Source: an uncultured Acidimicrobiaceae bacterium (GTDB lineage Bacteria > Actinomycetota > Acidimicrobiia > Acidimicrobiales > RAAP-2). Taken from it: a stretch of DNA of 64,000 nt. A model generated the notes under the pieces. It saw only the letters and a list, made by a program, of their open reading frames with translations. It did not search any database and had not been told where the DNA came from. Numbering within the stretch: position 1 is the stretch's first letter; every line of letters starts with the position of its first letter. The stretch lies in assembly GCA_963819695.1 (NCBI GenBank), contig CAWFXD010000002.1, positions 503,142 to 567,141 on the forward strand, given 5' to 3'. A program made the translations under genes and the position numbers. Positions 13,669 to 31,189 of the stretch are shown here, one piece after another.

Positions 13669-14325
13669 TCAACCGACGACGAAGGTGCGCAGGACCACGC
13701 GGGCTTCGTCGATCCGACCCTGTCGGACCAGCGGAACCACCTGGCTCTCGAGGATCCGGTCCCAGTCGAGCGACTCGGTCGAGGTGCCGGTGTCCTTCAC
13801 CAACCATCGGGCTTCGTCGAGCAGCTCCGCCACCACGGCCACGTCGAAGTCGAGAGTTCCGGCGACCCGGGACCGGAGCCACCCGGCCAGAGCCGGACTG
13901 GCGCCCCCGGTGGCGACGGCCACCGTCACCGACCCTGCCCGGTGCACCGCCGGGAGCAGGAAGCTGCAGTTGTCGACGTCGTCGGCACTGTTCACCCACA
14001 CCCCGGCGGCGTCGGCATCGGCGAATACCGCATGGTCGACCTCCGGACGGCCGGTGGCGGTGACCACCAGCCGGTAGTCGGCGGCTTCCGGGCTCCGGTA
14101 GGGGCGGGTCTCGATGGTCAGCGACCCGGCCCTCCCCCCGGCCGGCGGATCTGTCCCCCAGGAGCGGATGTCGCCGATGACCTCAGGGGCCACCACGGTG
14201 ACCAGGGCACCGCAACCCAGGAGCCCTTCGACCTTGCGGGCGGCCACCCGCCCACCGCCCACCACCAGGCATCGCCGGCCGGAGACCACCAGCGAGACCG
14301 GGTACAGCACGGCAGTTGGGGCCAC
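13669..14325 (-). CDS. Siroheme synthase N-terminal-domain protein (precorrin-2 dehydrogenase / sirohydrochlorin ferrochelatase, CysG-N/SirC-like)
   Basis: Rossmann motif LVVGGGRVAARKVEGLLGCGALVTVVAPE. The size is 218 aa. It lies downstream of cysDN, beside a siroheme-dependent sulfite reductase. Confidence 0.8.
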   Translation of the reverse strand: MAPTAVLYPVSLVVSGRRCLVVGGGRVAARKVEGLLGCGALVTVVAPEVIGDIRSWGTDPPAGGRAGSLTIETRPYRSPEAADYRLVVTATGRPEVDHAVFADADAAGVWVNSADDVDNCSFLLPAVHRAGSVTVAVATGGASPALAGWLRSRVAGTLDFDVAVVAELLDEARWLVKDTGTSTESLDWDRILESQVVPLVRQGRIDEARVVLRTFVVG

Positions 14326-14335
14326 GTCTGCCCGA

Positions 14336-15745
14336 TCAGCCGTGCACGTCGAGGGGGGCGGGGTCCATCTCCAGAGGGGTCAGCGCCGGGGGGCCCACCA
14401 TCCCGGCCGCCACCGTGCCATTGGTGGTCGGGTCGATCACCACGAAACTCCCGGTGATCCGGTTGCGGCGGTAGAGATCGGCAGCCAGGGGAGTGGCCAC
14501 GGCAATGGTGGCCGTGCCGATGTCGTTTTCGGCCAGGGAGTCGGCCGGCAGCAGCTCCAGCCGGTTGACGTCCAACCGGCCGTCCACCGACACCACCCTG
14601 GCCGGGGTGACCCGGGTGGTGTGCTTGATCCGATACCGGGCACCCGCGGTCAGCGGGCGCGGGTCGAACCAGCAGATGGTGGCGACCAGCTGGGTCACCA
14701 CGTCGGGAGGGTCGTCGGCGGCGGCCAGCAGGTCACCCCGGCTGACGTCGACGTCGTCGGCCAGCTCCACCGACACCGACAGTCCCACCGCGGCCTCCTC
14801 GAGCGGCCCGTCGAGGGTCTCCACCGCGGTCACCGTCGAGCGCTGCCCACCGGGGAGCACGACCACCTCGTCGCCCTGCCGGAGAGGGCCTCCATTGACC
14901 ATGCCGGCGTAGGTCCGGCCGCCACCCGGTTGGCGGAGCACCCACTGGACCGGGAGCCGGGCGCCGGAGCCCTGGCGGTCCCCGTGGGCCCCGGCCCACT
15001 CACCGGCCGGCGCCTGCTCGAGGGATTCGAGGATGGTGGGACCCTCGTACCACGGGGCGGCGCCGGAGCGAACGGCCACGTTGTCGCCGTTGAGCGCGGA
15101 CACCGGGATCACGATGCACGACTCCACGCCCAACCGGTCGGCCAGGCGGGTCATCTCGGTGACCACCTGCTGGTAGGTGGACGGGTCCCAATCGGCCAGG
15201 TCCATCTTGTTGGCCGCCACGATCAGGTGGCGGACGCCCAGCAGCGCGGCGATGCAGACGTGGCGGCGGGTCTGCTCCCGCAGCCCCTTGGGGGCGTCCA
15301 CCACCACCAGGGCCAGGTCGGCCGTCGAAGCGCCGGTGGCCATGTTGCGGGTGTACTGCACATGGCCGGGACAGTCGGCGATGACGAACTTGCGGGTGGG
15401 GGTGGCGGCATAGCGATAGGCGACGTCGATGGTGATCCCCTGCTCCCGTTCGGCGCGGAGCCCATCGGTCACAAAGGAGAGGTCGATGCCGTCCACGCCC
15501 CGCCGGCGGGAGGCCGCCTCCACCGCTTCGATCTGATCGTCGAACAGCTGCTTGGTGTCGTGGAGCAGGCGGCCGATGAGGGTGGATTTGCCGTCGTCCA
15601 CCGATCCGATGGCGGCAAACCGCAATAGGTCCATCACCGGCTGGTCGGCTCCCTGGGAGCCATGACCGTGGGCAACCAACCTGTCGTCGTCCGGAACCCG
15701 GCCGGGGTCAACCGCGGTGCCGGTGCCGTCTGCAGTTGCCGCCAC
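14336..15745 (-). CDS. cysN: Sulfate adenylyltransferase subunit 1 (GTPase), without a fused APS-kinase domain
   Basis: GSVDDGKSTLIGRLL (G1), IADCPGH (G3), ANKMD (G4) and EF-Tu-like beta-barrel domains. The start lies 3 nt after the cysD stop. Confidence 0.9.
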   Translation of the reverse strand: MAATADGTGTAVDPGRVPDDDRLVAHGHGSQGADQPVMDLLRFAAIGSVDDGKSTLIGRLLHDTKQLFDDQIEAVEAASRRRGVDGIDLSFVTDGLRAEREQGITIDVAYRYAATPTRKFVIADCPGHVQYTRNMATGASTADLALVVVDAPKGLREQTRRHVCIAALLGVRHLIVAANKMDLADWDPSTYQQVVTEMTRLADRLGVESCIVIPVSALNGDNVAVRSGAAPWYEGPTILESLEQAPAGEWAGAHGDRQGSGARLPVQWVLRQPGGGRTYAGMVNGGPLRQGDEVVVLPGGQRSTVTAVETLDGPLEEAAVGLSVSVELADDVDVSRGDLLAAADDPPDVVTQLVATICWFDPRPLTAGARYRIKHTTRVTPARVVSVDGRLDVNRLELLPADSLAENDIGTATIAVATPLAADLYRRNRITGSFVVIDPTTNGTVAAGMVGPPALTPLEMDPAPLDVHG

Positions 15746-15748
15746 GGT

Positions 15749-16711
15749 TTAGAAGTAGCCCTCGCGCTTGCGGTCTTCCATCGAGGTTTCCGAGAACCGG
15801 TCGTCGGCCCGGGTTGCCCCCCGTTCCGAGACCCGCGACACCGCCACCTCCTGGATGATGCGGGCCAGGGTGGTCGCCTCCGAGCGCACCGCCCCGGTGC
15901 AGGTGGCGTCGCCCACCGTGCGGAACCGGACCGTCTCCTCGAAGGCGGTCTCGCCCGGGCCGGGCACCACCCAGGCGGACTCGGCCAACAGCATGCCGTC
16001 CCGCTCGATGACCGAGCGTCGGTGGGCGTAGTAGATGGACGGGAGTTCGATCGACTCGCGTTCGATGTACTGCCAGATGTCCAGCTCGGTCCAGTCCGAC
16101 AACGGGAAGGCCCTCAGGTGCTCGCCCGGCTGCACCTGGCCGGAGTAGAGCTGCCACAGCTCCGGCCGCTGGCGCTTGGGGTCCCACTGGCCGAAGGTGT
16201 CCCGGAAGGAGAGCACCCGCTCCTTGGCCCGGGCCTTGTCCTCGTCCCGCCGGGCGCCACCGATGCAGGCGTCGAATCCGTGGGCACCGATGGCGTCGAG
16301 CAGCGCGGTCGTCTGCAGGCGGTTCCGCATGCCTCCGTGACCGGGGTCCGCCACCCGGCCGGTGTCGATCGACTCCTGTACCGAGGCGACCAGCAGCCGC
16401 TCGCCCAGCTCCTCGATGCGCCGGTCCCGGAAGTCGATGACCTCGGGGAAGTTGTGGCCGGTGTCGACATGCATGACCGGGAACGGGAAGCGACCGGGAC
16501 GGAAGGCCTTCTCGGCCAGCCGGAGCAGCACCGCCGAGTCCTTGCCCCCGCTGAACAGGAGCACCGGGCGTTCACACTCGGCGGCCACCTCCCGCATGAT
16601 GAAGACGGCGTGGGCCTCCAACAGATCGAGGTGGTCGACGGTCGGCCGGAGGTTCCTCCCGGTGACAGCCTCCAGGGATCCGGAGGCGGGGGGATCGAGG
16701 GTGGTTGTCAT
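15749..16711 (-). CDS. cysD: Sulfate adenylyltransferase subunit 2
   Basis: LEAHAVFIMREVAAECERPVLLFSGGKDSAVLL (PP-loop), FPFPVMHVDTGHNFPE and the C-terminal SMEDRKREGYF. Confidence 0.93.
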   Translation of the reverse strand: MTTTLDPPASGSLEAVTGRNLRPTVDHLDLLEAHAVFIMREVAAECERPVLLFSGGKDSAVLLRLAEKAFRPGRFPFPVMHVDTGHNFPEVIDFRDRRIEELGERLLVASVQESIDTGRVADPGHGGMRNRLQTTALLDAIGAHGFDACIGGARRDEDKARAKERVLSFRDTFGQWDPKRQRPELWQLYSGQVQPGEHLRAFPLSDWTELDIWQYIERESIELPSIYYAHRRSVIERDGMLLAESAWVVPGPGETAFEETVRFRTVGDATCTGAVRSEATTLARIIQEVAVSRVSERGATRADDRFSETSMEDRKREGYF

Positions 16712-16916
16712 GGTGGGAATCGTTCCTGTCCCTGGTCAGTGGCGGCTTGAAGAAGAATGGAATAGGCCGATGGGCCGGCCCGGTTGTGTACAACATCGGG
16801 AAGCCCGAGGTGATTCCACCAAAAGATGATCCGATTAGTCATATATACTAGCGGGGCCGGATACCTGCAAGGTCCCGGGGCCCCCCGCACGAACCCCTCG
16901 ACGAGAGCGAGCCACC
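16712..16916. promoter_or_regulatory. Divergent cysDN / cysH-sir control region
   Basis: A 205-bp spacer between divergently transcribed sulfur-assimilation operons. It holds the most AT-rich stretch of the neighbourhood (16811-16855, ...ccaaaagatgatccgattagtcatatatactagc...) with a -10-like TATATACT at 16842-16849. No specific operator could be assigned. Confidence 0.35.
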
Positions 16917-17591
16917 TTGTCCAGCCAGCCCCAACTGACGACCCTCCATCACGAGCTGGCTGAGGTTTCGGCCGAGTTCGAGTCGGCCCCGGCCGGGAAG
17001 GTCATCACCTGGGCGCTGGAGCGGTTCGGGTCCAAGGTCTCGCTGGCCTGCTCCTTCCAGGATGCGGTCATCGTCGACCTGGCGGTGGCCGCCGATCCGG
17101 GGATCGAGGTCGTCTTCCTCGACACCGGGGCGCACTTTCCCGAGACCCTGGCCTACGTCGAGACCATCCGCCAGCGCTACAACCTCAACCTGACCACCAC
17201 CCACCCGGTGGAAGGGGCCGAGGACTGGCCGTGCGGGTCGGAAAGATGCTGCGAATTCCGCAAGGTCCTCCCCCTCAAGCAGGCACTCCAGGGCCAGGAG
17301 GCGTGGATGACCGGGGTCAAGCGGGTGGACGCCCCGACTCGGGCCGCCGCCCCCATCGTGTCCTTCGACGAGAACTGGGGGATGGTCAAGATCAATCCCC
17401 TGGCCACCTGGACCGACCAGGACATCGCCGGCTACGAGGCCGACCACGGCATCCCCCGCCACCCGTTGCTGTCGCAGGGCTACCTGTCCATCGGGTGTGC
17501 ACCGACCACCCGCCCGGTGGCCCCGGGCGAGGATCCGAGAGCCGGGCGTTGGTCCGACTCGGACAAGGTCGAGTGCGGGCTGCACCTCTGA
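16917..17591 (+). CDS. cysH: Adenylyl-sulfate (APS)/PAPS reductase, thioredoxin-dependent, Fe-S type
   Basis: ERCCEFRKVLPL (Cys-Cys pair), SIGCAPTT and the C-terminal ECGLH catalytic motif. TTG start. Confidence 0.9.
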   Translation: MSSQPQLTTLHHELAEVSAEFESAPAGKVITWALERFGSKVSLACSFQDAVIVDLAVAADPGIEVVFLDTGAHFPETLAYVETIRQRYNLNLTTTHPVEGAEDWPCGSERCCEFRKVLPLKQALQGQEAWMTGVKRVDAPTRAAAPIVSFDENWGMVKINPLATWTDQDIAGYEADHGIPRHPLLSQGYLSIGCAPTTRPVAPGEDPRAGRWSDSDKVECGLHL

Positions 17592-17592
17592 G

Positions 17593-19386
17593 ATGGCCAA
17601 GGACCAGGACGAGCTCTACGGTCTGACCATTCGGGGCACCGACCGGGTGATGCCCTTCATCAACCCCTACCGGACCCACGGCGAGCTCAACGACATCGAG
17701 AAGCAGAAGCTGGCCCGGGCGCCGTTGGACGTGGTCGACTCCATCATCAACGTCTACGCCAAGGAGGGACCCTCGGCGATCGCCAAGGTGCCCGGCGAGG
17801 TGGAACGCCTGAAGTGGGCCGGGATCTATCCGCAGAAGCAGGGCGGCGACGCCTTCATGATGCGGATCAAGGTTCCCGGCGGGCACCTGACCGCCGCCCA
17901 GTTCCGCGAGATCGGGGTGGTGGCCGACGCCTTCGGCGAGGGACCCGACGGCACCGAGAGCCGGGTGTTCGGCTCCAAGTACGCCGATCTCACCACCCGG
18001 CAGTCGGTGCAGATCCACTGGATCCGCATGGAGGACATCCCCCGCATCTGGCGGCGGTTCGCCTCGGTGGGTCTGACCACCATCCAGGGCTGCGGGGACG
18101 GCGCTCGCAACGTGCTCTGCTGCCCGGTGTCCGGCGTCGATGCCGACGAGGCGTTCGACGCCTACCCGGTGGTCAAGCAGGTCTCGGCCTTCTTCACCGG
18201 GAACCGCGAGTACGCCAACCTCCCCCGCAAGTTCAAGATCTCCATCACTGGTTGCTTGGAGGACTGTGCCCAGGCCGACATCAACGACATCGGGCTCTGG
18301 CCGGCCCGGGCCGACGACGGGACCCTGGGGTTCAACCTCTTGGCCGGCGGCGGCCTCTCCGACGGCGAGCGGATGGCCTCGGATCTCGACGTCTTCGTCC
18401 GCCAGGACCAGGCCCTGGAGGTCTGCCGGGCCATCGCCCAGACCTTCGGGGAGCTCGGCAACCGCGAGAACCGCGGCCTGGCCCGGATGCGGTACCTGGT
18501 CCAGGAGCTGGGCCCGGAGGGATTCCGGGCCGAGGTGGCGGCCCGGGCCGCCTTCGATCTGGTCCCGGCCGGGGAGTCGCTCACCCGCCGGTACCGCGGC
18601 GACCACATCGGGGTCCACCCGCAGAAGGAGGACGGGCTGTTCTACGTCGGGTGCTCGGTCCCGGTGGGGAGGATGAACGGCCCGGAGATGGTGGAGGTCG
18701 CCCGGCTGGCCGAGACCTACGGGGACGGCACCATCCGGATCGCCACCGACCAGAACTTCACCCTCACCGGTGTCCCCGGCGACAAAGTCGAGCAGCTGCT
18801 GGCCGAGGACATCCTGGCCAAGTACTCGCCGTATCCGGGCCCGTTCTCCCGGGGGGTGGTGGCCTGCACCGGCACCGAGTTCTGCCGCTACGCCATCGTC
18901 GAGACCAAGGAGCGGGCGGTGAAGTGGGCGCGCTTCCTGGATGCGGAGCTGGCCGGGGAACCGGTGGGTGCCGCCCCGACGCCCAACGGGTGGTCCGGCC
19001 CCCGGGAGGACGCCGGGGTCATCCGGATGCACTTCTCCGGGTGCTCGGCCAGTTGCGCCCAGCCCCAGATCGCCGACATCGGGTTCCGGGGGGCGGTGAC
19101 CCACGTGGGCACCCACCTGGCCGAAGCCGTCGACATCGGCCTCGGGGGATCGCTGGGGTCTGCCCCCGGGTTCATCGACTGGGTGGAGGGGTCCCGGCCG
19201 GTCAACGACGTCCCCGATGCCCTGCTCCGCATCGTCCGGCGCTACCAGTCCGAGCGTCGTCCCGACGAGCCGTTCTACAATTGGGCCCGGCGGGTCCCCA
19301 ACGACGACCTCCGGGTCACCCTGGGCGAAGCCGGGACGGGAACCCCCGTCATGTTGACGACCAAACCGGAAGCGCGGGTCAAGTGA
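17593..19386 (+). CDS. sir: Assimilatory siroheme-[4Fe-4S] sulfite reductase (ferredoxin-type NirA/SirA family)
   Basis: ATG 17593 lies 1 nt after the cysH stop. It has a duplicated NIR/SIR fold and the cluster/siroheme ligands C-x5-C (ACTGTEFC) and C-x3-C (GCSASC). The ORF-track 5' extension to 17497 lies inside cysH. Confidence 0.9.
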   Translation: MAKDQDELYGLTIRGTDRVMPFINPYRTHGELNDIEKQKLARAPLDVVDSIINVYAKEGPSAIAKVPGEVERLKWAGIYPQKQGGDAFMMRIKVPGGHLTAAQFREIGVVADAFGEGPDGTESRVFGSKYADLTTRQSVQIHWIRMEDIPRIWRRFASVGLTTIQGCGDGARNVLCCPVSGVDADEAFDAYPVVKQVSAFFTGNREYANLPRKFKISITGCLEDCAQADINDIGLWPARADDGTLGFNLLAGGGLSDGERMASDLDVFVRQDQALEVCRAIAQTFGELGNRENRGLARMRYLVQELGPEGFRAEVAARAAFDLVPAGESLTRRYRGDHIGVHPQKEDGLFYVGCSVPVGRMNGPEMVEVARLAETYGDGTIRIATDQNFTLTGVPGDKVEQLLAEDILAKYSPYPGPFSRGVVACTGTEFCRYAIVETKERAVKWARFLDAELAGEPVGAAPTPNGWSGPREDAGVIRMHFSGCSASCAQPQIADIGFRGAVTHVGTHLAEAVDIGLGGSLGSAPGFIDWVEGSRPVNDVPDALLRIVRRYQSERRPDEPFYNWARRVPNDDLRVTLGEAGTGTPVMLTTKPEARVK

Positions 19387-20648
19387 ACGGCTATCGAATC
19401 CGCGACGAGATCAACGGGATCGCCGAGCCGCCCGGGAAGACCTGGTTCTGGGAGCTCGAGGCCGGGGTCATCGAGGCTGACCGGTGCATCCAGTGCGGAA
19501 CGTGTGTGGCCGTCTGCCCGTCGAACTCCATCGGCATCGGGGAGGACACCTTCTTGCCCGAGCTGGTCAAGATGTGCACCGGCTGCTCGCTGTGCTGGGA
19601 CTTCTGTCCCCGGGGCGGGCTCCGCTACGAATCCGCCTGGCCGCCGTCGACCCCGATGGCCGACGAGTCCCCGGTCAACTTCGTGGAGCGGCCCGACCCC
19701 GCCGATCCCTACTGGAAGATCACCGGTGGGCCCCCGGGCGACGGCCTCGGCGCGGTGCTGGAGTCCTACGCCGCCCGGGCCGGCAGCCGCTCCGAGTTCG
19801 TCCAGGACGGCGGGGTGGTCTCGGCCCTGTTGCTGGGGGCGCTGGCCGGCGGGGAGATCGACGGCGCCCTGGTGACCAAGCCCAGCTCCGACCCCGACGA
19901 GCCGTGGAAGGGGGTGTCCCATCTGGCCACCACGGCCAAGGAGATCGTCGACGCCGCCGGCAGCTACTACAACCAGACCATGGCCCTGGCCGAGCTCGAC
20001 CTCTCCAGGTACGACCTGCCCCGCAATCCCCGGATCGCGGTGGTGGGGACCCCGTGTGAGATCCAGGGGATCCGGGCCATGCAGTCGCGCCGGTGGGAGT
20101 CGGGCGTGCACCGGGTCGACGCGGTGGTCCTGACCATCGCCCTGCTGTGCACCAAGAGCTTCGACTACCAGGGCCTGATGCTGCGGCTGCTCCGCGACGA
20201 CCGGGGCATCGACCTCGACCGGGTGAGCAAGGTCGACGTGATCCACGGCCGGATGATCGTCGAGTACCTCGATGGTGAAGTGGCGGTCGACGAGCCGGTG
20301 AAGAATTTCCACGGCGCCGCCCTCAAGGGCTGTGACGAATGCGCCGACTTCCTGGGCCGGGGTGCCGACCTGTCGGTGGGAAGCGTCGGGGCCATCGAGG
20401 GTTGGAGCAGCCTGCTGGTGCGGACCGAGCGGGGCCGGATGGCGGTGGACAACGCCCGGGGCCGTCTCGATCTGCGCGAGCTCGACAATCCCGACGCCCT
20501 GGTGAAGCTGGACGCCTTCGACAAGCGGATCGCCTTCAAGAGTCTGCAGCGGAAGTTCGATCCTGACGCCCCGTTGTTCATCGACTACGAGGAGCACCTC
20601 TCGAACTACCGCGGCACCGACCGCGCTCCGGCTGAAATCGACCGTTGA
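19383..20648 (+). CDS. FrhB/FdhB/FpoF-family (coenzyme F420 hydrogenase/dehydrogenase beta-like) flavoprotein with N-terminal 2x[4Fe-4S] ferredoxin domain
   Basis: GTG 19383 overlaps the sir TGA (GTGA). It carries two CxxCxxCxxxCP motifs (CIQCGTCVAVCP, CTGCSLCWDFCP), followed by QDGGVVSALL, VGTPCEIQGIRAM, LCTKSF, GCDECADF...DLSVGSVG and SLLVRTERG, which are typical of FrhB N- and C-domains. The long ORF-track entry 17814-20648 is coding only from 19383. Confidence 0.8.
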   Translation: MNGYRIRDEINGIAEPPGKTWFWELEAGVIEADRCIQCGTCVAVCPSNSIGIGEDTFLPELVKMCTGCSLCWDFCPRGGLRYESAWPPSTPMADESPVNFVERPDPADPYWKITGGPPGDGLGAVLESYAARAGSRSEFVQDGGVVSALLLGALAGGEIDGALVTKPSSDPDEPWKGVSHLATTAKEIVDAAGSYYNQTMALAELDLSRYDLPRNPRIAVVGTPCEIQGIRAMQSRRWESGVHRVDAVVLTIALLCTKSFDYQGLMLRLLRDDRGIDLDRVSKVDVIHGRMIVEYLDGEVAVDEPVKNFHGAALKGCDECADFLGRGADLSVGSVGAIEGWSSLLVRTERGRMAVDNARGRLDLRELDNPDALVKLDAFDKRIAFKSLQRKFDPDAPLFIDYEEHLSNYRGTDRAPAEIDR

Positions 20649-20709: not shown

Positions 20710-21084
20710 GTGGATAGGGTGGTGCCGATGACGATCGTCGAGTTAGCGGGGGGTGCTCGATTGGCTCTCCCGGAAGAGCCCGTCGAATTGAAGGTCGGTC
20801 TGCGCGATGCGTTGCTCGCCGGCCAGGATTGGCGCGACGGCTTGAGCGACGACGTCTGCATCGGAGTGTGGCTGTGGGGCGAATGGCAGCCGACCCTGGA
20901 GCCGGCCGGGATCACCCGGGACCAGTTCGTGGAACTGGTGACCGCCTACCGTCGCGAGCTCTGGCTGTGGTTGGTCGGCGACCGGATCTGGGCCCAGTTC
21001 ATCTCCGGCCTGGCCGGACGGGTGGCCCGGCGGATACCCGCGCTGGGTCTCGATGAACCGGCGGCGTCTCCCACCCATCAGTAG
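20710..21084 (+). CDS. Hypothetical protein (no recognisable family)
   Basis: Only an ORF with protein-like composition, 60 nt downstream of the FrhB-like gene. The start is uncertain (ATG 20728 is also possible). Confidence 0.4.
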   Translation: MDRVVPMTIVELAGGARLALPEEPVELKVGLRDALLAGQDWRDGLSDDVCIGVWLWGEWQPTLEPAGITRDQFVELVTAYRRELWLWLVGDRIWAQFISGLAGRVARRIPALGLDEPAASPTHQ

Positions 21085-21908: not shown

Positions 21909-22994
21909 ATGGCACTCTCCATCGGCATCGTGGGCCTCCCCAACGTGGGGAAGTCCACGCTGTTCAACGCCCTGACCCGCAACGACGTGCTGGCGGCCAA
22001 CTACCCGTTCGCCACCATCGATCCCAACGTCGGGGTCGTGGCGGTGCCCGATCCCCGCCTCGATCGCCTGGCCGAGCTGTTCGAGAGCAAGGAAATCATC
22101 CCGGCCACCGTCACCTTCGTGGACATTGCCGGGATCGTCAAGGGGGCATCGGTTGGCGAGGGTCTCGGCAACAAGTTCTTGGCCGCCATCCGGGAGAGCG
22201 ACGCCATCTGCCAGGTGGTGCGGGTTTTCACTGATCCCGATGTCATCCACGTGGACGGTCGGATCGACCCGGCCGACGATATCGCCACCATCAACACCGA
22301 GCTGATGCTGGCCGATCTGCAGACGATCGACAGCCGGCTGGTCAAGCTGGCCAAGGAAGCCCGGAAACAGGCGGATCTGGTGCCGGCGGTGCGGGAGGCG
22401 GAGAAGGCCAGGGAGATACTCGACTCAGGCCGGACCATCGCCTCGGCAGTGTCGGCCGGGGAGGTCAAGGCCGAGCTCCTGGCCGATCTGCACCTGTTGA
22501 GCGCCAAGCCGTTCATCTATGTGTTCAACGTCGACGAGGACGCGTTGGACGATGAGGGGTTGCGAGCTGAGCTGGCGGCACTGGTGGCCCCGGCCGAATC
22601 GGTGATCCTCTGCGCCCAGATCGAGGCGGAGGTGGCCTCTCTCGACGCCGCCGACGCCGCCGAGTTGCTGGCCGGTTACGGCCAGAGCGAGTCGGGCCTG
22701 GTGCAGTTGGTCCATGTGGGGTTCTCCACCCTCGGCCTCCAGACGTTCCTGACCGCCGGCCCGAAGGAGTCGCGGGCCTGGACCATCCACGTCGGCGACA
22801 CCGCCCCCCAGGCCGCCGGGACCATCCATACGGATTTCGAGCGGGGGTTCATCAAGGCGGAGATCGTCGGGTACGACGACCTGGTCGAGGCCGGCTCTCT
22901 GGCCGCGGTGCGGGCGGCGGGCAAGGCCCGGGTGGAGGGCAAGGACTACGTGATGCGCGACGGCGACGTGGTCGAATTCCGCTTCAACGTCTAG
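21909..22994 (+). CDS. ychF: Ribosome-binding ATPase YchF
   Basis: [30 protein letters not shown] and the C-terminal TGS-like GFIKAEIV...[17 protein letters not shown]. Confidence 0.95.
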
Positions 22995-23307
22995 GGGAGT
23001 CCAATGGGCCAGGTGGGGGCCTTGGGCACCCCCTGCACCGACGTCCAAGACGCGTCGGGACTTTGGTCCCTAGCTGGCCGAATTGCTGGTCTGGCACACT
23101 GAGTCATACATCTTGCGCAGTCTGGAGGTGTGAAACGGGTAGGGGCCTGAGAGGTTCCACGGAATCACGTTGCCGGATCGTGGATCTTCCAGCCTGATTC
23201 GAGCTAACGAAGTCAGTCTCGTTGCAGGTTCACCGATCACGGTGATGTCAAAGAGTTGGATTCCAACCCGATGAACAGCGATCTGGCACAAACGGGGAAG
23301 CGATCTG

Positions 23308-24927
23308 GTGCTACCGGGAGGAACGAAGGCTAGCCAGAACAACGGGACGGCCGACCACCAGCGATCGGGTTCGGTAGTGACCGCGAGCCGCAGGCGACCC
23401 TCGGTCCTGACCTTGGCCGTTGTTGTTGTCTTGGCCGTCGTGTCGGTGGTCGGGTTTGTGTTCACCAAGCGCAACACCGATCAACAGGAACAGGCACTCC
23501 TCCAAAGCAATACCGGCCAAGCCGCCGCCTATGTATCGGAGATCTTCTCGGCTATTGCCGACGACCTCACCTCGGCGGCTGCCATCGTGACTTCGACCAA
23601 CGGATCCCCGACCGCTTTCGAAAAAGCCGAGCCGTCTACACCGCCTTTGGTTCTTCTCCTGGTCAAGAAGACCGGCGCCGACTATGTCGTGTCTGCGGGC
23701 TCGGGCTCCGGCTTCCAGCCCGGCCAGACCCTTCAGGGAGGCGCCCTGTCCACGGTGGCACAGGCCGGGTCCAAGTTCAACGCAGGTCCGGTCACCTACG
23801 ACGGCAAGCTGAGCACGGCACGATTTGCCATCGGGGGGACGGCGGTGCCCGCTGGCCTGGTCATCTACGAACAGTTCTCCCTCAACCCGTTCACCGCGAC
23901 TCCGGTGACGACCGGGAAGCCTTTTGCACAACTCAAGGTCGCGCTGTACGGCGCTGGACCGATTAGCATGCAACAACCTCCTGGTAAGTACCAGCAGTTC
24001 GCTGCCCCTCAGCGGTTCGGTGGCGCGCAGCATGCCTCCGTAGGGAGCTCGCAATGGACGCTCGTGGCGGTGGCCCGCAGCCCCTTCATCGGAGGGTTCG
24101 CCAGGTACTCTTCAATTATCGTTCTCGTCCTCGGTCTGGTGATGGCCCTTATCATCGGGATCGCCATCGAGATCCTCGTTCGACGACAGCGCTATGCCGA
24201 AGCACTGGTCGATGAGCGCACCCAGGAACTGACCAGATCCCAGGCCGCGTTGGTTCGCCGGGAGCGACTCTCTGCCGTTGGAGAGATGGCGACGGTGATC
24301 GGGCACGAATTGCGTAACCCGCTGGGAGCGGCCATCAACTTGCTCTACCTGGCCCGCAACCGGGTCGCCGACCGCGACGACCCCGAACTCAACGGCTACC
24401 TGGTTCGGGCGGAGCGGGAGACGAACCGAGCCGCCGCCTTGTGTGAAGATCTCACTTCCTACATGCGCGAACGCCAACCCGTCTTCGTGAACCTCAACCT
24501 TGGTACGGTGGTGGCTGAAGTCCTCGAATCGACCCCGCCACCAGCCGGGATCGACGTTTCGGTACAGGACAACGGTGTTGACGTACAGGCTGACAGCGCC
24601 CAGCTCGTACAGATGCTCACAAATGTCATCGACAATGCGTATCAGGCCATGCCCGATGGGGGTTCGCTGCGCATAGCTGGTTCCCGGAACAATGGCGTTG
24701 TCGAGATCACCATGGAGGACACCGGAGTTGGCATTGACCCCACGGTTGCTGATCGGCTTACCGAACCCTTCTTCACCACCAAGCCGGTCGGAACCGGCCT
24801 CGGATTGGCTATCGTCCAGCGCTTCGCCAATGGCCATGGCGGCACCGTCATGATCGAGAATGGCGTCGAAAGTGGGGCGCGTGTGACCATCCGACTACCA
24901 AACGCCACCACCGAGGTGACACGATGA
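23308..24927 (+). CDS. Sensor histidine kinase with ~250-aa extracytoplasmic domain
   Basis: A TM helix (LTLAVVVVLAVVSVVGFVF), a second TM (IIVLVLGLVMALIIGIAIEILV), HisKA (ERLSAVGEMATVIGHELRNPL) and HATPase N/G boxes (NVIDNAYQAM, DTGVGI, GTGLGLAIV). Confidence 0.85.
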   Translation: MLPGGTKASQNNGTADHQRSGSVVTASRRRPSVLTLAVVVVLAVVSVVGFVFTKRNTDQQEQALLQSNTGQAAAYVSEIFSAIADDLTSAAAIVTSTNGSPTAFEKAEPSTPPLVLLLVKKTGADYVVSAGSGSGFQPGQTLQGGALSTVAQAGSKFNAGPVTYDGKLSTARFAIGGTAVPAGLVIYEQFSLNPFTATPVTTGKPFAQLKVALYGAGPISMQQPPGKYQQFAAPQRFGGAQHASVGSSQWTLVAVARSPFIGGFARYSSIIVLVLGLVMALIIGIAIEILVRRQRYAEALVDERTQELTRSQAALVRRERLSAVGEMATVIGHELRNPLGAAINLLYLARNRVADRDDPELNGYLVRAERETNRAAALCEDLTSYMRERQPVFVNLNLGTVVAEVLESTPPPAGIDVSVQDNGVDVQADSAQLVQMLTNVIDNAYQAMPDGGSLRIAGSRNNGVVEITMEDTGVGIDPTVADRLTEPFFTTKPVGTGLGLAIVQRFANGHGGTVMIENGVESGARVTIRLPNATTEVTR

Positions 24928-25310
24928 TCGATGACGTCAAGGTCCTCGTACTGGTGGCCGATGACAACGATGGCATCCGGAACACCACGGCCGCGATCCT
25001 GCGGGACGTCGGGTACACGGTGACCGAGGCACCGGATGGGGAGGCGGCTCTGGAGGCACTCAGCCAGGAGGCGTTCGATGTTGCTCTGCTCGACGTACGG
25101 ATGCCCAAACTGGACGGCATTTCGGTGGTGACTGATTTGGATCCTGAACCTCCACCGCCGGTGATCGTGATGGTCTCGGCCTACGACTTTGGCGCCGACC
25201 TCCGACAGCATCTCGGTCGGCGAGTCTTCAAGTATCTGAAGAAACCGGTTCCGCCGAAAGAGCTGATCGATGTCGTGTTCTCCGCCTCTGAGGGGATAGT
25301 GAGATCCTGA
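24924..25310 (+). CDS. Single-domain response regulator (REC only)
   Basis: The ATG overlaps the kinase stop (ATGA). Motifs: VLVADDNDG, LLDVRMPKLDG, MVSA and YLKKP. Confidence 0.85.
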   Translation: MIDDVKVLVLVADDNDGIRNTTAAILRDVGYTVTEAPDGEAALEALSQEAFDVALLDVRMPKLDGISVVTDLDPEPPPPVIVMVSAYDFGADLRQHLGRRVFKYLKKPVPPKELIDVVFSASEGIVRS

Positions 25311-25375
25311 ACCCGGGTGATGGGTCGATGAGGCTTTCGCGTTGTCGAGCCGTCGAGGACGTTAGGTAATGTTTC

Positions 25376-28357
25376 GTGGAATCCGGAATTGATAGTGGCG
25401 GGATAGCGCCCGCGACCGCCTCACCCCTCGGTGACGTTTGGAACCAGCGCGAATCCGGCGAGCCAAGCCAACGCGGATCGAGTCGGGTGCGTGCTCCTCA
25501 ACCCCCCGGGGACGTAGTGCCTATGATTCGGGAGGTGCATCCCGAGGGGATTTCCGCGGACGGGCTCCAGCCGAAGGTCCTGTTGGTCGACGATGACGGC
25601 GAACCGCGGACCGCGATTCGGAGAGGGCTCGACGTCGCGGGGTGGACTGTTTCGGAAGCATCCACCGGGACGGAGGCCATCGCCATGGCCTCTGAAGGCC
25701 AACCGGATGTGATCGTCCTCGATCTCGGCCCGCCCGATTCCGACCGGCGTTGGGTGCTGGCGGAATTGAAATCATCGGTCGAAACGGAATGGATCCCGGT
25801 GGTGACGGTTTCGGACCGGGGGGAACGGTCGACGGTGAGCAACCTGTTGCGGGAGGGAGCCGAGGACTTCATTCAGAAACCCATTTCGCTGGACGAGCTG
25901 GAGGCCCGGCTCGTCGCCGCACGGCGAGTGACGATCGCGCACCGGAAGTCGCTGGTGAGCGAGAGCCGGTACCGACAGCTGGTCGACCTTGCCGCCGAAG
26001 CAATCTTTTCGATTGACACCGAGGGGACTGTGACGTTCGTCAACCGTGCCGCTGCCGACATGCTCGGGAGAGATCAGGGCGAAATCGTCGGGCGGCACGT
26101 CTTCGATTTCATGGACGAAGAAGCTCAGGCAGCTACGGAAGGGAACGACGAAGCGCGCCGGGCGGGCCAACTCGGTTCCTACGAAACCCGGTTGCTCGAT
26201 GCCGAGGGAGGAACGATCTGGGTCCAGGTGGAGGCTTCCCCGCTTTACGACCCGGCAGGCGGCTACACCGGAAGTGTCGTGATGGCCACGAATCTGACCT
26301 CCCGGCGCGCCGCCGAGCAGTCTCTCCGGGTGAGCGAAGCCAGATTCAGATCGACGTTCGAACGCGGGCCATCCGGGATCGCCGAGATCGCCGTCGACGG
26401 CCGCTTCGTGCACGTGAACCCGGCGCTGTGCGAGATCCTCGGCTATTCCGCTGAGCAACTCACGGCGATGACGCTTGCCGACGTCTGTCACCCGGACGAC
26501 GACGAGCTGCTTGTCCAGCCACCCGTCGATCAGACTCATCAAAGTGGTACCGAACCGCAGCTGGCGCCATCCGAGCAATTCCATGCCGAGCGACGTCTGG
26601 TACATGCGGAGGGGAAGCTCGTCTGGTGTGATGTCAGCGGGTCTGCGGTGTTCGAGTCTGATGGCACCTTCGCCTATTTCGTGGTGCACTTCGTCGACGT
26701 CACCGACCAGAAGGAATTCGAGCGCTCGCTGGTCAGGTCGGAGGAACGCTGGAGAATCGCTTTCGATCTTGCGCCGGTCGGCCTGGCGGAGCTGTCGCTG
26801 GACGGCCACTTCATCCAAGTCAACCCCGCGCTGTCGGAGATCCTCGGCTACACGGCCAGACAGCTCCGGGCCATGACCGCCGCCGAGGTCAGCCATCCCG
26901 ATGATGTAGACGTGATCCGTCAAATCATGGCCGAGTTACCCCGTCTCGATATCGAGGATTTCAACTTCACCAGGCGGTTCATCCATGCGCTCGGGAAGGT
27001 CGTCTGGTGCGTCGTCAGAGCGGCCCGGATCCACGGCACCGACGGGGCCGCCGATCACTATCTGGTCGGATATCTCGACATCACGGATCGAAAAGAATTC
27101 GAGAGCCAGTTGGAGGAGATGGCAGAACAGGCGAATGAGGCGTCTCAGCTCAAGTCGAATTTTCTGGCCAACATGAGCCACGAGATTCGCACGCCGATGA
27201 ACGGCGTCATCGGGATGTCCGAGCTTCTACTCGAGACCGACCTCGATTCCATTCAGCGTGACTATGCCGAGACCGTGCATAGCTCGGGTGAGGCACTGCT
27301 GACCGTCATCAACGACATCCTCGACTTCTCCAAGATCGAAGCCGGCAAGGTGGAGATCGAGGACGTCGAATTCAGCGTGACCACCATCGTCGAAAGTGTC
27401 GTGGACCTGCTGGCGCGAACTGCGGAGGCCAAGGGGCTGGAGTTGGTGGCGTCGGTCGATGGCTCGGTTCCGGCCACGGTCACCGGCGACCCGGCTCGGG
27501 TGCGCCAGGTCCTGATCAATCTTGTCGGCAATGCCATCAAATTCACCCAGGCCGGGCACATTGCCGTCCGGGCCACCAAGGGCGAGTCCGTGGGTGCTCA
27601 TTCCGTTCTCCGATTTGAGGTGTCCGACACGGGAGAAGGGATACCCGCCGAAAAGCTCGATCTGATTTTCCATCCTTTCGTTCAAGCGGACATGTCGACG
27701 TCCAGGAAGTTCGGGGGTACTGGCCTGGGGCTGTCGATCAGTGGCCAACTTATCGGGCTGATGGGAGGTGGCTGCGGCGTATCGAGCGAAGTTGGAGTCG
27801 GAAGCACATTCTGGTTCACGATAAAGGTCGGCACGGATGGCGTGGCGAAACGCGGGTTGATGTCAGCTGAGGCCACCCCGAAGCCGTCGGACCCGGTCCT
27901 CGATGCGGTATCGACCCCATCTCCTTCGAATGCGGATGATTCCGGGGAGGGCTGGCTGCTGCTGGCCGAAGACAATCTCATCAACCAAAAGGTTGCGGTC
28001 GGCATGCTCTCCAGCGCCGGGTATCGGGTCGATACCGTGCTCAACGGTGCCGAGGCGGTCAAGGCGGTGGCCGACGGGGCCTACGACGCGGTATTGATGG
28101 ACTGCCAGATGCCGGATCTGAACGGCTACGACGCGACGGCGGCCATCCGGGCGCTCAAGAGCCCCAGCCGGTTCATTCCAATCATCGGGGTCACCGCGGG
28201 TGCGCGGCAGGAGGACCGTCGGCGTTGCCTGGACGCGGGTATGGACGCCTATATTTCCAAGCCGGTGATCAAGGACGCCCTGGTGGCCTTGGTGGAAAGG
28301 ATCGTCAAGAGCCGACCAGTCATCGAGGATGCAACCGATGGCGGTGGCCTCGGCTAG
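25376..28357 (+). CDS. Hybrid sensor kinase: REC - 3x PAS - HisKA - HATPase - REC
   Basis: N-terminal REC ([10 protein letters not shown]...[10 protein letters not shown]...FIQKP). Three PAS-like repeats ([41 protein letters not shown]). [13 protein letters not shown], HATPase ([21 protein letters not shown]) and a C-terminal REC ([11 protein letters not shown]...[12 protein letters not shown]...YISKP). An alternative ATG start is at 25523. Confidence 0.85.
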
Positions 28358-28371
28358 ACCGGCCAGGCAGA

Positions 28372-29601
28372 ATGGAGCGTATGGACTTCGCGTTCTCGCC
28401 CAAGGTGGAAGAACTACGCCAGCGGTTGCTGGACTTCATGGACAACCGCGTCTATCCGGCGGAGCCGGTGTATGCCGGGCAGGTCGCGGAGTCCGGCAAA
28501 CCGTATTACCACGCACCCATCATCGAAGAGTTGAAAGCCGAGGCACGCAGCCAGGGGTTGTGGAACCTCTTCTTGCCTAACGGGGAATGGGGTGCCGGGC
28601 TGTCCAACCTCGAGTACGCGCCGCTGGCCGAGGTCACTGGTCATAGTCCGTCTCTCGCCCCGGAGGCGCTCAATTGCTCAGCGCCGGACACCGGCAACAT
28701 GGAGCTGCTGGCGGAATTCGGAACTCCGTTGCAGCGGGACCAGTGGCTGGTCCCGCTCCTGGCCGGAGAGATCCGATCCTGTTTTGGAATGACCGAGCCC
28801 GACGTGGCGAGCTCGGACGCCACCAATATTCGCACCCGCGTCGAGCGCGACGGCAGCGAGTACGTCATCAACGGCCGGAAGTGGTGGACCACCGGGGCAA
28901 TGAGCGATCGTTGCAAGCTGTGCATCGTCATGGGCGTCACCGACCCGAACGCCGACCCGTATCACCGCCAGAGCATGATCCTGGTTCCCCTCGACGCTCC
29001 CGGTGTCACGGTGGTCAGACCTCTGTCGGTGTTCGGCTACGAGGAGGGTGGGGGCGATGCCGAGGTCCTGTTCGAAAACGTGCGGGTCCCGGTCACCAGC
29101 CTGCTCGGCGAAGAGGGCAGCGGCTTCGCGCTGGCCCAGGCCCGACTCGGACCTGGCCGCATCCACCACTGCATGCGCGCCATCGGCATGGCCGAACGGG
29201 CGTTCGATCTCCTGTGCCGACGGGCCCAGACCCGGGAGGCGTTCGGCAAGCGCCTGGCCGAACAGGGAGTGGTCGGCGACATGATCGCCGAATCACGGAT
29301 CGAGATCGAGCAGGCCCGACTACTCGTGCTCAAGACCGCGTGGTTGATGGATACCGTGGGAAACAAGGGGGCACGTGTCGAGATCTCCGCCATCAAGGTC
29401 ATCGCCCCCCGGGTGGCGTGCCAGGTGATCGATCGGGCCATCCAGGTGCACGGTGGGGCCGGGGTTTCCCAGGACTTCCCCCTGGCCCGGATGTACTCGG
29501 CCGCCCGTACCCTTCGGATTGCCGACGGTCCCGACGAGGTGCACAAGATGACCATCGCTCGACGCGAGCTTCGACGATTCGAGGCCAGCCCGGCGGCCTG
29601 A
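28372..29601 (+). CDS. Acyl-CoA dehydrogenase
   Basis: [19 protein letters not shown]..., [24 protein letters not shown] and the C-terminal IADGPDEVH. The ORF-track 5' extension to 28225 overlaps the kinase gene. Confidence 0.9.
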
Positions 29602-29614
29602 GTCGCAGCTCAGG

Positions 29615-31189
29615 TCAGAGCAGCGACGGAATGATGGCCTCGATGACGCTGGGCCCGGGCGTGGCCAGGGCTTTGGCCAACTGGTCGCTGAATTCATCGG
29701 CGGTCTCGGCGCGGGCGGCGTAAAGGCCCATGCCGGTGGCCAGTTGGACGAAGTCGATGTCCGGTCGACCGAGGTCGAGCATGTCCCGTGCCCGGGGCCC
29801 GGGGGCTTCTGCCCCGACCCGGTCCAACTCCATGTTCAGGACCGCGTAGGAGTGGTTGTTGAGGAGCACGGTGGTTACGTCGAGGCTCTCACGGGCCATG
29901 GTCCACCACGCCTGCAGGGTGTACATGGCACTTCCGTCCGCCTCGAGGGCCACGACCCGCCTCCCCGGTGAGGCAACCGCGGCCCCGACCGCCACCGGGA
30001 GGCCCTGGCCGATGGCCCCACCCGTCAGGCAGAGCCAGTCATGCGGCGGAGCTCCGGCCGTGGAACCCGGGGCGAACAGGCCCGAGGTGTTCCCCTCGTC
30101 GGACACGATGGCCCCTTCGGGGAGGAGGGCCCCGAGGGCATCGCACACACTGGTGGCGGTGAGCGGACCGGTGGGGAGAGCCGGCGTCCGAGACTCCTGG
30201 CGGGGGGCATTCCCGCCGGAAACGTCGAGCAGAGCGCCGAGTGCCTCTACCGCAACATCGACATCGTCGGCCGGCCCGGCGGCAAGGTGAACCGTGCAGC
30301 CTTCGGGGACCAGGTCACTGGCCTTGCCGGGGTAGGCAAAGAAGGAGACGGGCGGCTTGGCATCCACCAGTACCAGGTGCCGGATACCGTCGAGTTGCAT
30401 GGCGGTGAACTCGGCGAGGTAGGCCAATCGCTCCACCGGTGGGCGTCCGGCGCCCCGTTCGAGTCGGGCCGGGAACGTCTCGGCCAGCAGTTTGGCCCCG
30501 GTGGCGGCGGAGATGTCCGCCACGGTGTCCAACGCGTTCCCCGAGCAGGCCCGTCCGCCGATCAGGATGGCCGACGGCTCTCCCGACCGCAACGCGTTGG
30601 CCGCGGCCTTCAGGTCGTCCTCGACCGGCGCGGCGCCATGGGCACCGACCGGTTGACCCGTCGCCGCGCGCCGGCCGGCCACTTGGCCGCCCTCCGACCA
30701 CGAAACATCGGCCGGCAGGATGAGGGTGGCCACGGAACCGGGGGGCCCCACCGCCGCGGTCAGGGCGTCGAGGGCATCGTCGCTCAGCCGGGCCGTGGAC
30801 TCCGACGTGCGCACGAACGACGACACGTTCCGGGCCACCGTCTCGATGTCCGATTGGAGCTGGGCGTCATACTTCCGGTGGTAGGTGGCATGGTCGCCCA
30901 CGATGTTCATCACCGGGCTGTTGGCCCGACGAGCGTTGTGCAGGTTGGCCAAACCGTTGCCGAGCCCCGGACCGAGGTGGAGAAGGGTGGCGGCGGGTCG
31001 TCCGGCCATCCGTGCATAGCCGTCGGCGGCACCGGTGGCCACCCCTTCGAACAGGGCCAGCACGCTGCGCATGCCGGGGACGTCGTCGAGGGCGGCGACG
31101 AAGTGCATCTCCGAGGTGCCGGGGTTCATGAAGCAGGTATCGACACCCTGCTCGACGAGGGTGCGGATCAGCGCCTGGGCTCCGTTCAT
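29615..31189 (-). CDS. Thiamine-diphosphate-dependent enzyme, acetolactate-synthase-large-subunit-like
   Basis: MNGAQALIRTLVEQGVDTCFMNPGTSEMHF..., GVATGAADGYAR and the TPP motif GGAIGQGLP...EADGSAMY...LLNN. Confidence 0.85.
   Translation of the reverse strand: MNGAQALIRTLVEQGVDTCFMNPGTSEMHFVAALDDVPGMRSVLALFEGVATGAADGYARMAGRPAATLLHLGPGLGNGLANLHNARRANSPVMNIVGDHATYHRKYDAQLQSDIETVARNVSSFVRTSESTARLSDDALDALTAAVGPPGSVATLILPADVSWSEGGQVAGRRAATGQPVGAHGAAPVEDDLKAAANALRSGEPSAILIGGRACSGNALDTVADISAATGAKLLAETFPARLERGAGRPPVERLAYLAEFTAMQLDGIRHLVLVDAKPPVSFFAYPGKASDLVPEGCTVHLAAGPADDVDVAVEALGALLDVSGGNAPRQESRTPALPTGPLTATSVCDALGALLPEGAIVSDEGNTSGLFAPGSTAGAPPHDWLCLTGGAIGQGLPVAVGAAVASPGRRVVALEADGSAMYTLQAWWTMARESLDVTTVLLNNHSYAVLNMELDRVGAEAPGPRARDMLDLGRPDIDFVQLATGMGLYAARAETADEFSDQLAKALATPGPSVIEAIIPSLL

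Follow-up and report, generated by a model that had tools for sequence, protein, structure and literature searches.

What delivers the electrons to a bacterial assimilatory sulfite reductase? The question is raised by the cysH-sir-frhB-like operon of an uncultured Acidimicrobiaceae bacterium from soil, found in a 64-kb stretch of chromosomal DNA of ∼68% G+C (contig CAWFXD010000002.1; this whole stretch is called the window here, and positions are counted from its first nucleotide). In this operon, the gene for Sir, a siroheme sulfite reductase, is followed by one for a protein that combines ferredoxin and FrhB domains; we refer to the two proteins as alpha and beta. Pfam and NCBIfam scans found no other redox partner for Sir (ferredoxin, Fpr, or CysJ) encoded in the cluster. 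On balance, we favor the view that the operon specifies an assimilatory sulfite reductase made of two subunits, an enzyme of the predicted “aFsr” kind, with F420H2, the reduced form of cofactor F420, as its most probable electron donor. It is very likely that beta is the dedicated electron-input partner of Sir. Three elements of this view are inferences from the evidence below: that the two proteins form a physical complex, that electrons take the proposed path, and that F420H2 supplies them. The concept of a two-component analog of Fsr, the F420H2-dependent sulfite reductase of methanogens, has already been published: in 2012, Susanti and Mukhopadhyay recognized aFsr in halobacteria from the same gene context, predicted an aSir as alpha and a free-standing homolog of the N-terminal half of Fsr as beta, and called the system “likely an archaeal invention” (PMC3448663). 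What is new is the abundance of the aFsr-type pair in bacteria.

The genes of the operon follow one another closely (Table 1). A single base, G, lies between the cysH stop and the sir ATG at 17593, and at the next junction the sir TGA (19384 to 19386) overlaps the GTG start of the frhB-like gene at 19383 in a shared GTGA. This start is supported because most relatives have ATG at the same position. The sequence-only reading of this DNA had pointed to the 1-nucleotide gap and the GTGA overlap, as well as to several motifs in the 421-residue protein (QDGGVVSALL, GTPCEIQG, GCDECADF...DLSVGSVG, and SLLVRTERG). Both junctions are present in the sequence, and all of the motifs are found in the translation. 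It had also described a minus-strand cysD, a cysN without a CysC domain, and a CysG-N/SirC-like gene, and these identities were borne out by Pfam and NCBIfam.

Is the pairing of sir and the frhB-like gene conserved beyond this genome? Scanning one genome per species, we found at least 587 stretches with beta relatives, and the best 80 of these were used for synteny. The 80 are 73 to 95% identical, and all but two of the records are labeled Acidimicrobiales or Acidimicrobiaceae; close homologs of beta are numerous, and they belong to Acidimicrobiales wherever the source names a taxon. In all 80 loci, sir immediately precedes the frhB-like gene, and cysH is 5′ of sir in 74 of the 74 whose contig reaches that far. 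The sir stop overlaps the frhB-like start as RTGA in 76 of the 80 loci and as TGATG in two, and the remaining two junctions look like assembly frameshifts. Around this core, sirC occurs in 69 and cysDN in 37 of the 80. Distant members (37 to 48% identical) were recovered by an exhaustive profile-free search in other Actinomycetota, Chloroflexota, and haloarchaeal-type contigs, and the pair is kept in every distant locus that reaches upstream. These pairs often adjoin cysH or siroheme genes: one Actinomycetota contig has cobalamin/siroheme genes upstream, and an “Actinobacteria” contig has the order cysH-sir-frhB-sirC-methyltransferase. A tblastn search of plasmids showed that 10 cultured haloarchaeal species carry beta on a megaplasmid (44 to 52% identity, at least 95% coverage), including a copy in Halogeometricum borinquense DSM 11551 that is 50% identical to the window beta over 96% of its length. 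In both haloarchaeal loci inspected, on H. borinquense pHBOR03 and Haloferax mediterranei pHM500 (loci L091 and L092), the partner gene is upstream, and beta overlaps this Sir-like gene.

The coupling seen in the 80 genomes is far beyond chance, and the pair stays together across lineages while the surrounding genes change. In addition, the sir-linked FrhB-like proteins are monophyletic (bootstrap 100/100) in a simple distance (neighbor-joining) tree, apart from the archaeal free-standing ferredoxin-FrhB modules. Because the pair persists across lineages and its FrhB-like members form one clade, there is strong comparative evidence for a functional, and probably a physical, partnership of alpha and beta. 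It could be argued that the gene order was merely inherited, with Sir running on free ferredoxin and the FrhB-like protein serving some other redox reaction. After all, the alpha-beta complex is a prediction from gene pairing, and galT, ychF, and a small open reading frame (ORF) are likewise syntenic within Acidimicrobiales. However, the pair, unlike those neighbors, survives across phyla and across the boundary between bacteria and archaea, its coding overlap is conserved, and the sir-linked proteins fall in that single clade, so we regard inherited synteny as highly improbable. The FrhB-like protein thus emerges as the sequence-only reading had described it, a separately encoded, translationally coupled partner of Sir, given the GTGA junction and a synteny conserved from Acidimicrobiales to Chloroflexota and haloarchaea. 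Apparent natural Sir-FrhB fusions (P0066, P0155, P0145, P0126, and others) were rejected, as each occurs on one contig and has only partial Sir or FrhB domains; we read them as frameshift artifacts at the 4-nucleotide overlap.

The domain content of beta is that of an electron-input module. The hidden Markov models for both halves of the FrhB fold, which the earlier reading had proposed as a check, match the protein (FrhB_FdhB_N at residues 129 to 203, 4.7e-17; FrhB_FdhB_C at 217 to 368, 7.3e-34). The N-terminal ferredoxin domain, which aligns with that of Fsr, has two CxxCxxCxxxCP motifs (C35xxC38xxC41xxxC45P and C65xxC68xxC71xxxC75P) and therefore two [4Fe-4S] clusters, and all eight of these cysteines are invariant in a 35-sequence alignment. 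In the FrhB core, Q141-D-G-G144, G222-T-P-C225, C256, C317, and C320 are invariant across the clade, and the one [4Fe-4S] cluster of the core is assigned to C225, C256, C317, and C320; all 12 cluster cysteines of beta are therefore conserved in the clade. An AlphaFold2 model of beta, which carries no cofactors, has a predicted local distance difference test score (pLDDT) of 78.7 and a predicted template-modeling score of 0.82, with the FrhB core mostly at pLDDT 75 to 95. Disorder is confined to residues 1 to 17 and to the linker at 88 to 119 (linker pLDDT 30 to 39), whose length differs among relatives.

Beyond the FrhB core, beta continues into a C-terminal extension (residues 369 to 421) that is, by sequence comparison, specific to the sir-linked family; the best-matched stretches in FrhB chains stop at beta residue 353 to 356. 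The model places helices at residues 370 to 387 and 402 to 409 (pLDDT 82 to 89), and R390, H405, Y409, and R414 are conserved. This modeled extension is a possible docking element. As a separate observation, the haloarchaeal, Chloroflexota, and other Actinomycetota copies of beta (P0130, P0134, P0136, P0137, and P0158; loci L081 to L090) end in a tail of the form ..P.R...Y...C, with Cys as the last residue. The Acidimicrobiales clade of the window ends ∼10 residues short (window 20600 to 20648), without the ...Y...C tail.

What does alpha reduce? Pfam finds NIR_SIR (6.9e-52, two stretches) and NIR_SIR_ferr (4.2e-39, three stretches) in alpha and no Fer4 domain, and the translation has the siroheme/[4Fe-4S] motifs CTGTEFC...GCSASC. 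Among solved chains, alpha is nearest to tobacco nitrite reductase (3b0l, 5e-91) and to the NirA of M. tuberculosis (1zj8, 7e-69); spinach ferredoxin-nitrite reductase is also among the closest, and E. coli CysI is a distant match. Judged by these matches, alpha is a two-repeat enzyme of the aSir/NirA type and not Fsr-like. Its best NCBIfam model is ferredoxin-nitrite reductase, although it scores under every NCBIfam equivalog cutoff. The assignment of sulfite as the substrate rests on context, namely the coupling to cysH, the presence of cysDN and sirC, and a rhodanese fusion in one haloarchaeal partner.

It is tempting, given such relatives, to see alpha as a nitrite reductase and the pair as an F420-type assimilatory nitrite reductase, comparable to Fsr group II of anaerobic methanotrophic (ANME) archaea, which is a nitrite reductase (PMC9295563). 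RefSeq, too, labels the haloarchaeal partners “ferredoxin--nitrite reductase,” next to a [quoted passage not shown] protein in the two loci inspected, but the former label is probably a misannotation. The gene neighborhood argues for sulfur: cysH is coupled upstream in all 74 loci that can be assessed, cysDN and sirC lie alongside, and Pfam and NCBIfam scans of the window ORFs found no nitrate or nitrite assimilation genes nearby. In one contig with haloarchaeal-type neighbors (L086, 5617 to 7998), the 793-residue Sir partner carries a fused rhodanese domain at its N terminus, which ties the pair to sulfur chemistry; this fusion is also a hint that some haloarchaea use another sulfur substrate or handle the product differently. 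Furthermore, the M. tuberculosis enzyme is a sulfite reductase despite its name “NirA,” going by the title of Schnell et al. 2005 (cited in PMC11237513). In all, we consider a nitrite-reducing pair very unlikely, and a sulfite-reducing one remains our preferred assignment.

The sulfate-activation route that feeds Sir is less clear-cut. In CysH, the catalytic motif ECGLH and the CC pair are intact. Residues 191 to 200 (window 17485 to 17514), however, read SIGCAPTTRP, with Thr where the fourth Fe-S Cys of the CC...CxxC pattern is expected. The same Thr is found in 69 of 77 loci, and the canonical CxxC occurs in two distant Actinomycetota loci. The protein scores 243 bits against a cutoff of 154 with NF002537 and 191 against 235.3 with the APS_reductase model TIGR02055. 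With Thr at the fourth position, the Fe-S cluster of CysH is either ligated differently or lost, and the substrate may be adenosine 5′-phosphosulfate (APS) or 3′-phosphoadenosine 5′-phosphosulfate (PAPS). CysN is encoded without an APS-kinase domain, since its match covers only positions 17 to 431 of the 632-position CysN/CysC bifunctional model; a cysC could be present elsewhere in the genome. The sequence-only reading had these genes complete an APS route. That route is unproven, because CysH reads GCAPTT in place of CxxC and misses the TIGR02055 cutoff.

We now turn to the donor. The best sequence matches of beta among solved structures are Fsr (9tn7, 1e-38; then 7np8 and 7npa), in its N-terminal half only, and 8riu_B (7e-35), followed by FrhB from three methanogens (3zfs_C, 9r51_B, and 6qgr_B), with FdhB weaker. 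The top matches (Fsr, 8riu_B, and FrhB) are all F420-dependent, and no HCAR chain is among the sequence matches at E ≤ 0.01. Structural comparison of the model with Foldseek gives a similar picture. The top hits are 8riu_B, from an F420-reducing carbon monoxide dehydrogenase (CODH; TMt 0.81), and 8rja_E, from an F420-reducing formylmethanofuran dehydrogenase (Fwd; TMt 0.78), followed by Fsr and FrhB (7npa, 7np8, 6qgr_B, and 4ci0_C). HCAR comes later, with a TM of ∼0.55 and 17 to 18% identity, below all F420 modules except FdhB (7bkb_E and 8rvu_E) and the 3zfs_C FrhB model. The sequence-only reading had allowed for clustering with non-F420 FrhB-like clades; neither by sequence nor by structure is beta closely related to HCAR/BciB, the non-F420 reductases of this fold.

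The distribution of the pair points the same way, as we found it only in lineages associated with F420: haloarchaea, Actinobacteria, Chloroflexi, and Acidimicrobiia. F420 has been detected in haloarchaea, where its role has been called “enigmatic” (PMC8305020, PMC8498797). Actinobacteria and Chloroflexi are lineages that make F420 or encode its synthesis (PMC8498797), and Acidimicrobiia lineages are reported to encode the pathway (PMC7771536, PMC10205998). Because every characterized relative closer than HCAR uses F420, the flavin-site motifs are invariant, and only F420-associated lineages carry the pair, F420H2 is probably the donor to beta.

Several points weigh against this reading. Beta scores well below the curated F420 equivalogs, at 142.6 against a cutoff of 331.5 for FrhB (TIGR03289) and 121.6 against 475 for FpoF (NF040616), and the sir-linked clade reaches 159 bits on the curated FrhB model, compared with 197 to 311 for archaeal free-standing ferredoxin-FrhB modules. 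Because beta scores so far below these cutoffs and diverges from the FrhB model more than those modules do, its substrate pocket may have changed. The FrhB fold has non-F420 members, as the Foldseek match to HCAR shows. Pfam and NCBIfam scans of essentially all sizeable ORFs found neither genes for F420 biosynthesis nor members of F420-dependent enzyme families in the 64-kb window. No residue test settles F420 specificity, since Fsr was crystallized without bound F420 (PMC10229431) and Fsr group II works with F420H2 despite a deviant putative F420 site. For the wider family, aFsr was “putative” in 2012 (PMC3448663) and still so in 2022 (PMC9295563), and in 2021 a Natronomonas homolog was judged “too distant to assume isofunctionality” (PMC8305020). 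In the same scans of the window, an ABC ATPase matched an “F420-0 ABC” model and was rejected as generic (143 against a cutoff of 372).

Could the same complex and path, then, be fed by something else? The nicotinamide nucleotide NAD(P)H, FO (a precursor of F420), or some other carrier of low potential might be the donor. It is also conceivable that the FAD (flavin adenine dinucleotide) site is vestigial and that beta serves only as a dedicated polyferredoxin relay from another reductase. The divergence of the sir-linked clade from all curated F420 equivalogs, the lack of F420 genes in the window, the non-F420 chemistry of HCAR on the same fold, and F420-site residues that cannot be verified all speak for such a donor. 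However, all characterized relatives nearer than HCAR use F420, and the pair is confined to F420-associated lineages. A vestigial flavin site is at odds with QDGG, GTPC, and other FrhB core motifs that are invariant across the clade. As for NAD(P)H, the FrhB fold, as seen in FrhB and Fsr structures, has no dinucleotide-binding domain for it. We therefore consider a donor other than F420H2 unlikely, though it is the most serious of the alternatives.

If F420H2 is the donor, how would the electrons travel? The FrhB core of beta would bind FAD and be reduced there by hydride transfer from a donor of two electrons, most probably F420H2. Electrons would then leave one by one, first through the core's own [4Fe-4S] cluster and then through the two clusters of the ferredoxin domain, to arrive at the siroheme-[4Fe-4S] center of alpha. 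There, Sir would use six electrons to reduce sulfite to sulfide, with the sulfite supplied by CysDN and CysH. In this scheme, beta would stand in for the free ferredoxin or CysJ-type flavoprotein of other assimilatory sulfite reductases. Fsr provides a precedent, as its electrons pass from FAD to cluster 1, clusters 2 and 3, and siroheme via the same module (PMC10229431).

As far as sequence can tell, the window operon has every feature by which aFsr was recognized: an aSir-type alpha, a free-standing beta with ferredoxin and FrhB domains, adjacent genes, and orthology of beta with the haloarchaeal protein, including the copy of H. borinquense, a species listed in the 2012 tree legend (PMC3448663). 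Bacteria entered that study with two sequences, Rubrobacter Rxyl_0964 and a Thermobaculum ORF, both only in a figure legend (PMC3448663). A 2021 review of F420 confined the FrhB-type family to methanogens, ANME archaea, and Archaeoglobales, and Fsr to Methanobacteriales and Methanococcales (PMC8498797). In full-text searches on F420 and sulfite reductases in Actinobacteria and Acidimicrobiia, we found no paper on a bacterial aFsr-type system or on its biochemistry; the literature so covered also lacks the scale of the pair in Acidimicrobiales and the implied possibility that a core assimilatory pathway of bacteria is driven by F420. As the idea dates from 2012, the value of the present analysis is in the much wider distribution of the pair and as a prompt for biochemistry.

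The broader proposal is that the FrhB-type family has a large bacterial branch and that Acidimicrobiales, other Actinomycetota, Chloroflexota, and haloarchaea all use F420H2 as the physiological reductant when they reduce sulfite for assimilation; for us, this proposal hangs in an even balance. If true, F420 would have a core role in bacterial biosynthesis and, in haloarchaea, its first defined job. Beta would be the first bacterial F420 enzyme of the FrhB type, and the pair would be the first link of F420 to primary sulfur metabolism outside methanogens. Sulfate assimilation in very common soil and peat actinobacteria would then be driven by F420H2, not by ferredoxin or NADPH, which would partly explain why non-methanogenic F420 producers retain the cofactor. 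The system is directly testable, as the pair is found in cultured, genetically tractable haloarchaea, for example on a megaplasmid of Haloferax mediterranei ATCC 33500.

Table 1. Features of the cysH-sir-frhB-like locus (window positions; residue numbers refer to beta)
Feature	Position	Strand	Product or description	Evidence
sirC/cysG-N-like	13669..14325	-	precorrin-2 dehydrogenase, siroheme synthesis	NAD_binding_7, Sirohm_synth_M; TIGR01470, 111.5 bits vs cutoff 62.3
cysN	14336..15745	-	sulfate adenylyltransferase large subunit, without APS-kinase domain	TIGR02034, 511 bits
cysD	15749..16711	-	sulfate adenylyltransferase small subunit, divergent from cysH	NCBIfam NF003587, 446 bits
AT-rich element	16827..16851	+	TGATCCGATTAGTCATATATACTAG, in the cysD/cysH divergent intergenic region 16712-16916	motif survey; overlaps -10-like TATACT
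cysH	16917..17591	+	(P)APS reductase, 224 aa	TTG start 16917, TGA stop 17591; Pfam PAPS_reduct 1.8e-42
sir (aFsr-alpha)	17593..19386	+	aSir/NirA-type siroheme-[4Fe-4S] sulfite reductase, 597 aa	Pfam NIR_SIR, NIR_SIR_ferr
frhB-like (aFsr-beta)	19383..20648	+	predicted electron-input subunit, 421 aa	Pfam Fer4 dicluster, FrhB_FdhB_N, FrhB_FdhB_C
ferredoxin domain of beta	19467..19616	+	residues 29-78	Fer4_21, Fer4_9, Fer4; two CxxCxxCxxxCP motifs
linker of beta	19644..19739	+	residues 88-119, Pro/Asp-rich	between ferredoxin domain and FrhB core
FrhB core of beta	19767..20486	+	residues 129-368; presumed FAD site and one [4Fe-4S]	FrhB_FdhB_N, FrhB_FdhB_C
C-terminal extension of beta	20487..20645	+	residues 369-421, helical	model, conservation
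small conserved ORF	20728..21084	+	118 aa (124 aa from GTG 20710)	tblastn; directly 3′ of beta gene

Two further conserved elements flank the operon. Upstream of cysH, the pattern TGAYC-N4-6-TDGTCAY, followed by TATAsT, is present in 55 of 74 related loci; with both strands counted, 2.49 Mb of loci contain 77 matches to the pattern, and the window contains one. The window copy, TGATCCGATTAGTCATATATACTAG, is AT-rich amid 68% G+C DNA, and in some relatives the element is a perfect palindrome (ATGACCATTTTGGTCAT). It is a candidate operator, one that overlaps a -10 box and would belong to a regulator of sulfur assimilation. Downstream, the small ORF is matched by tblastn in 80 of 80 Acidimicrobiales loci, and its homologs are from Acidimicrobiales wherever the source names a taxon. 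It has an invariant C44 and six invariant Trp, and its AlphaFold2 model is helical (pLDDT 81), with no match to a Pfam or NCBIfam family or to a fold in the PDB. The small ORF might encode an accessory factor of the reductase or might merely be syntenic.

The remaining genes of the window are those of an ordinary chromosome (atpAGDC, murA, meaB, treS, pfk, galT, ychF, acyl-CoA metabolism, and two-component sensors). An Rfam scan of the window found no RNA family, and a promoter/terminator consensus scan found nothing above chance. The stretch at ∼22000 to 30000 has a lower G+C content (0.61 to 0.66, compared with ∼0.68 to 0.70) and encodes a histidine kinase, a response regulator, and a 993-residue PAS/HisKA/receiver hybrid kinase; it may have been horizontally acquired.

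How does the window pair compare with known systems? It is closest to aFsr, with which it shares the same two genes, their order, their domain content, and their clade. aFsr was assigned to halobacteria, whereas the host here is a bacterium of the Acidimicrobiales. Unlike aFsr as described, the window pair is part of a cysH-sir-frhB operon opposite cysDN-sirC, and its clade lacks the C-terminal ...Y...C tail of the haloarchaeal and other bacterial copies.

Fsr group I of Methanococcales (MJ0870; 7NP8, 7NPA) is related through its N-terminal half, which is among the best sequence and structural matches of beta and has the same domain order, a ferredoxin domain and then FrhB with FAD and one [4Fe-4S]. 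The logic would also be shared, from a hydride donor to FAD, a cluster chain, and siroheme. However, Fsr is a single chain that begins with the input module, whereas in the window the two subunits are read from separate ORFs in different frames, and the reductase gene comes first. The reductase half of Fsr has a single Dsr-like repeat and an inserted 2x[4Fe-4S] ferredoxin domain, whereas alpha is a two-repeat aSir without the insert. The “two-component analog of Fsr” of the sequence-only reading thus fits the input subunit, with its Fsr-like domain order, but not the reductase, which is of the aSir/NirA type (3b0l and 1zj8 closest). Because the reductase half is not Fsr-type, the pair would be an assembly that parallels Fsr rather than an Fsr split in two. 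The roles differ as well, as Fsr serves mainly for sulfite detoxification in methanogens and the window context is sulfate assimilation.

The F420 subunits of the “Candidatus Ethanoperedens” CODH and formylmethanofuran dehydrogenase (8RIU_B and 8RJA_E) have the same ferredoxin-FrhB architecture, are also separately encoded, and equip what is otherwise an enzyme of the ferredoxin type with an F420 site. They differ from beta in their catalytic partners, their archaeal host, their 26 to 28% identity, and the lack of the ∼50-residue C-terminal extension. On the reductase side, M. tuberculosis SirA/NirA (1ZJ8) and the plant nitrite and sulfite reductases are in the same structural class as alpha. 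These enzymes take their electrons from free ferredoxin, and we know of no coupled FrhB-like gene in the M. tuberculosis sirA-cysH-che1 cluster. A dedicated electron-input component encoded with the hemoprotein in a cys operon is known from E. coli CysJI and C. glutamicum fpr2-cysIXHDNYZ. There, the folds of CysJ and Fpr2/CysX are unrelated to that of the FrhB-like beta, and the donor is NADPH, so their likeness to the window operon is a functional analogy only.

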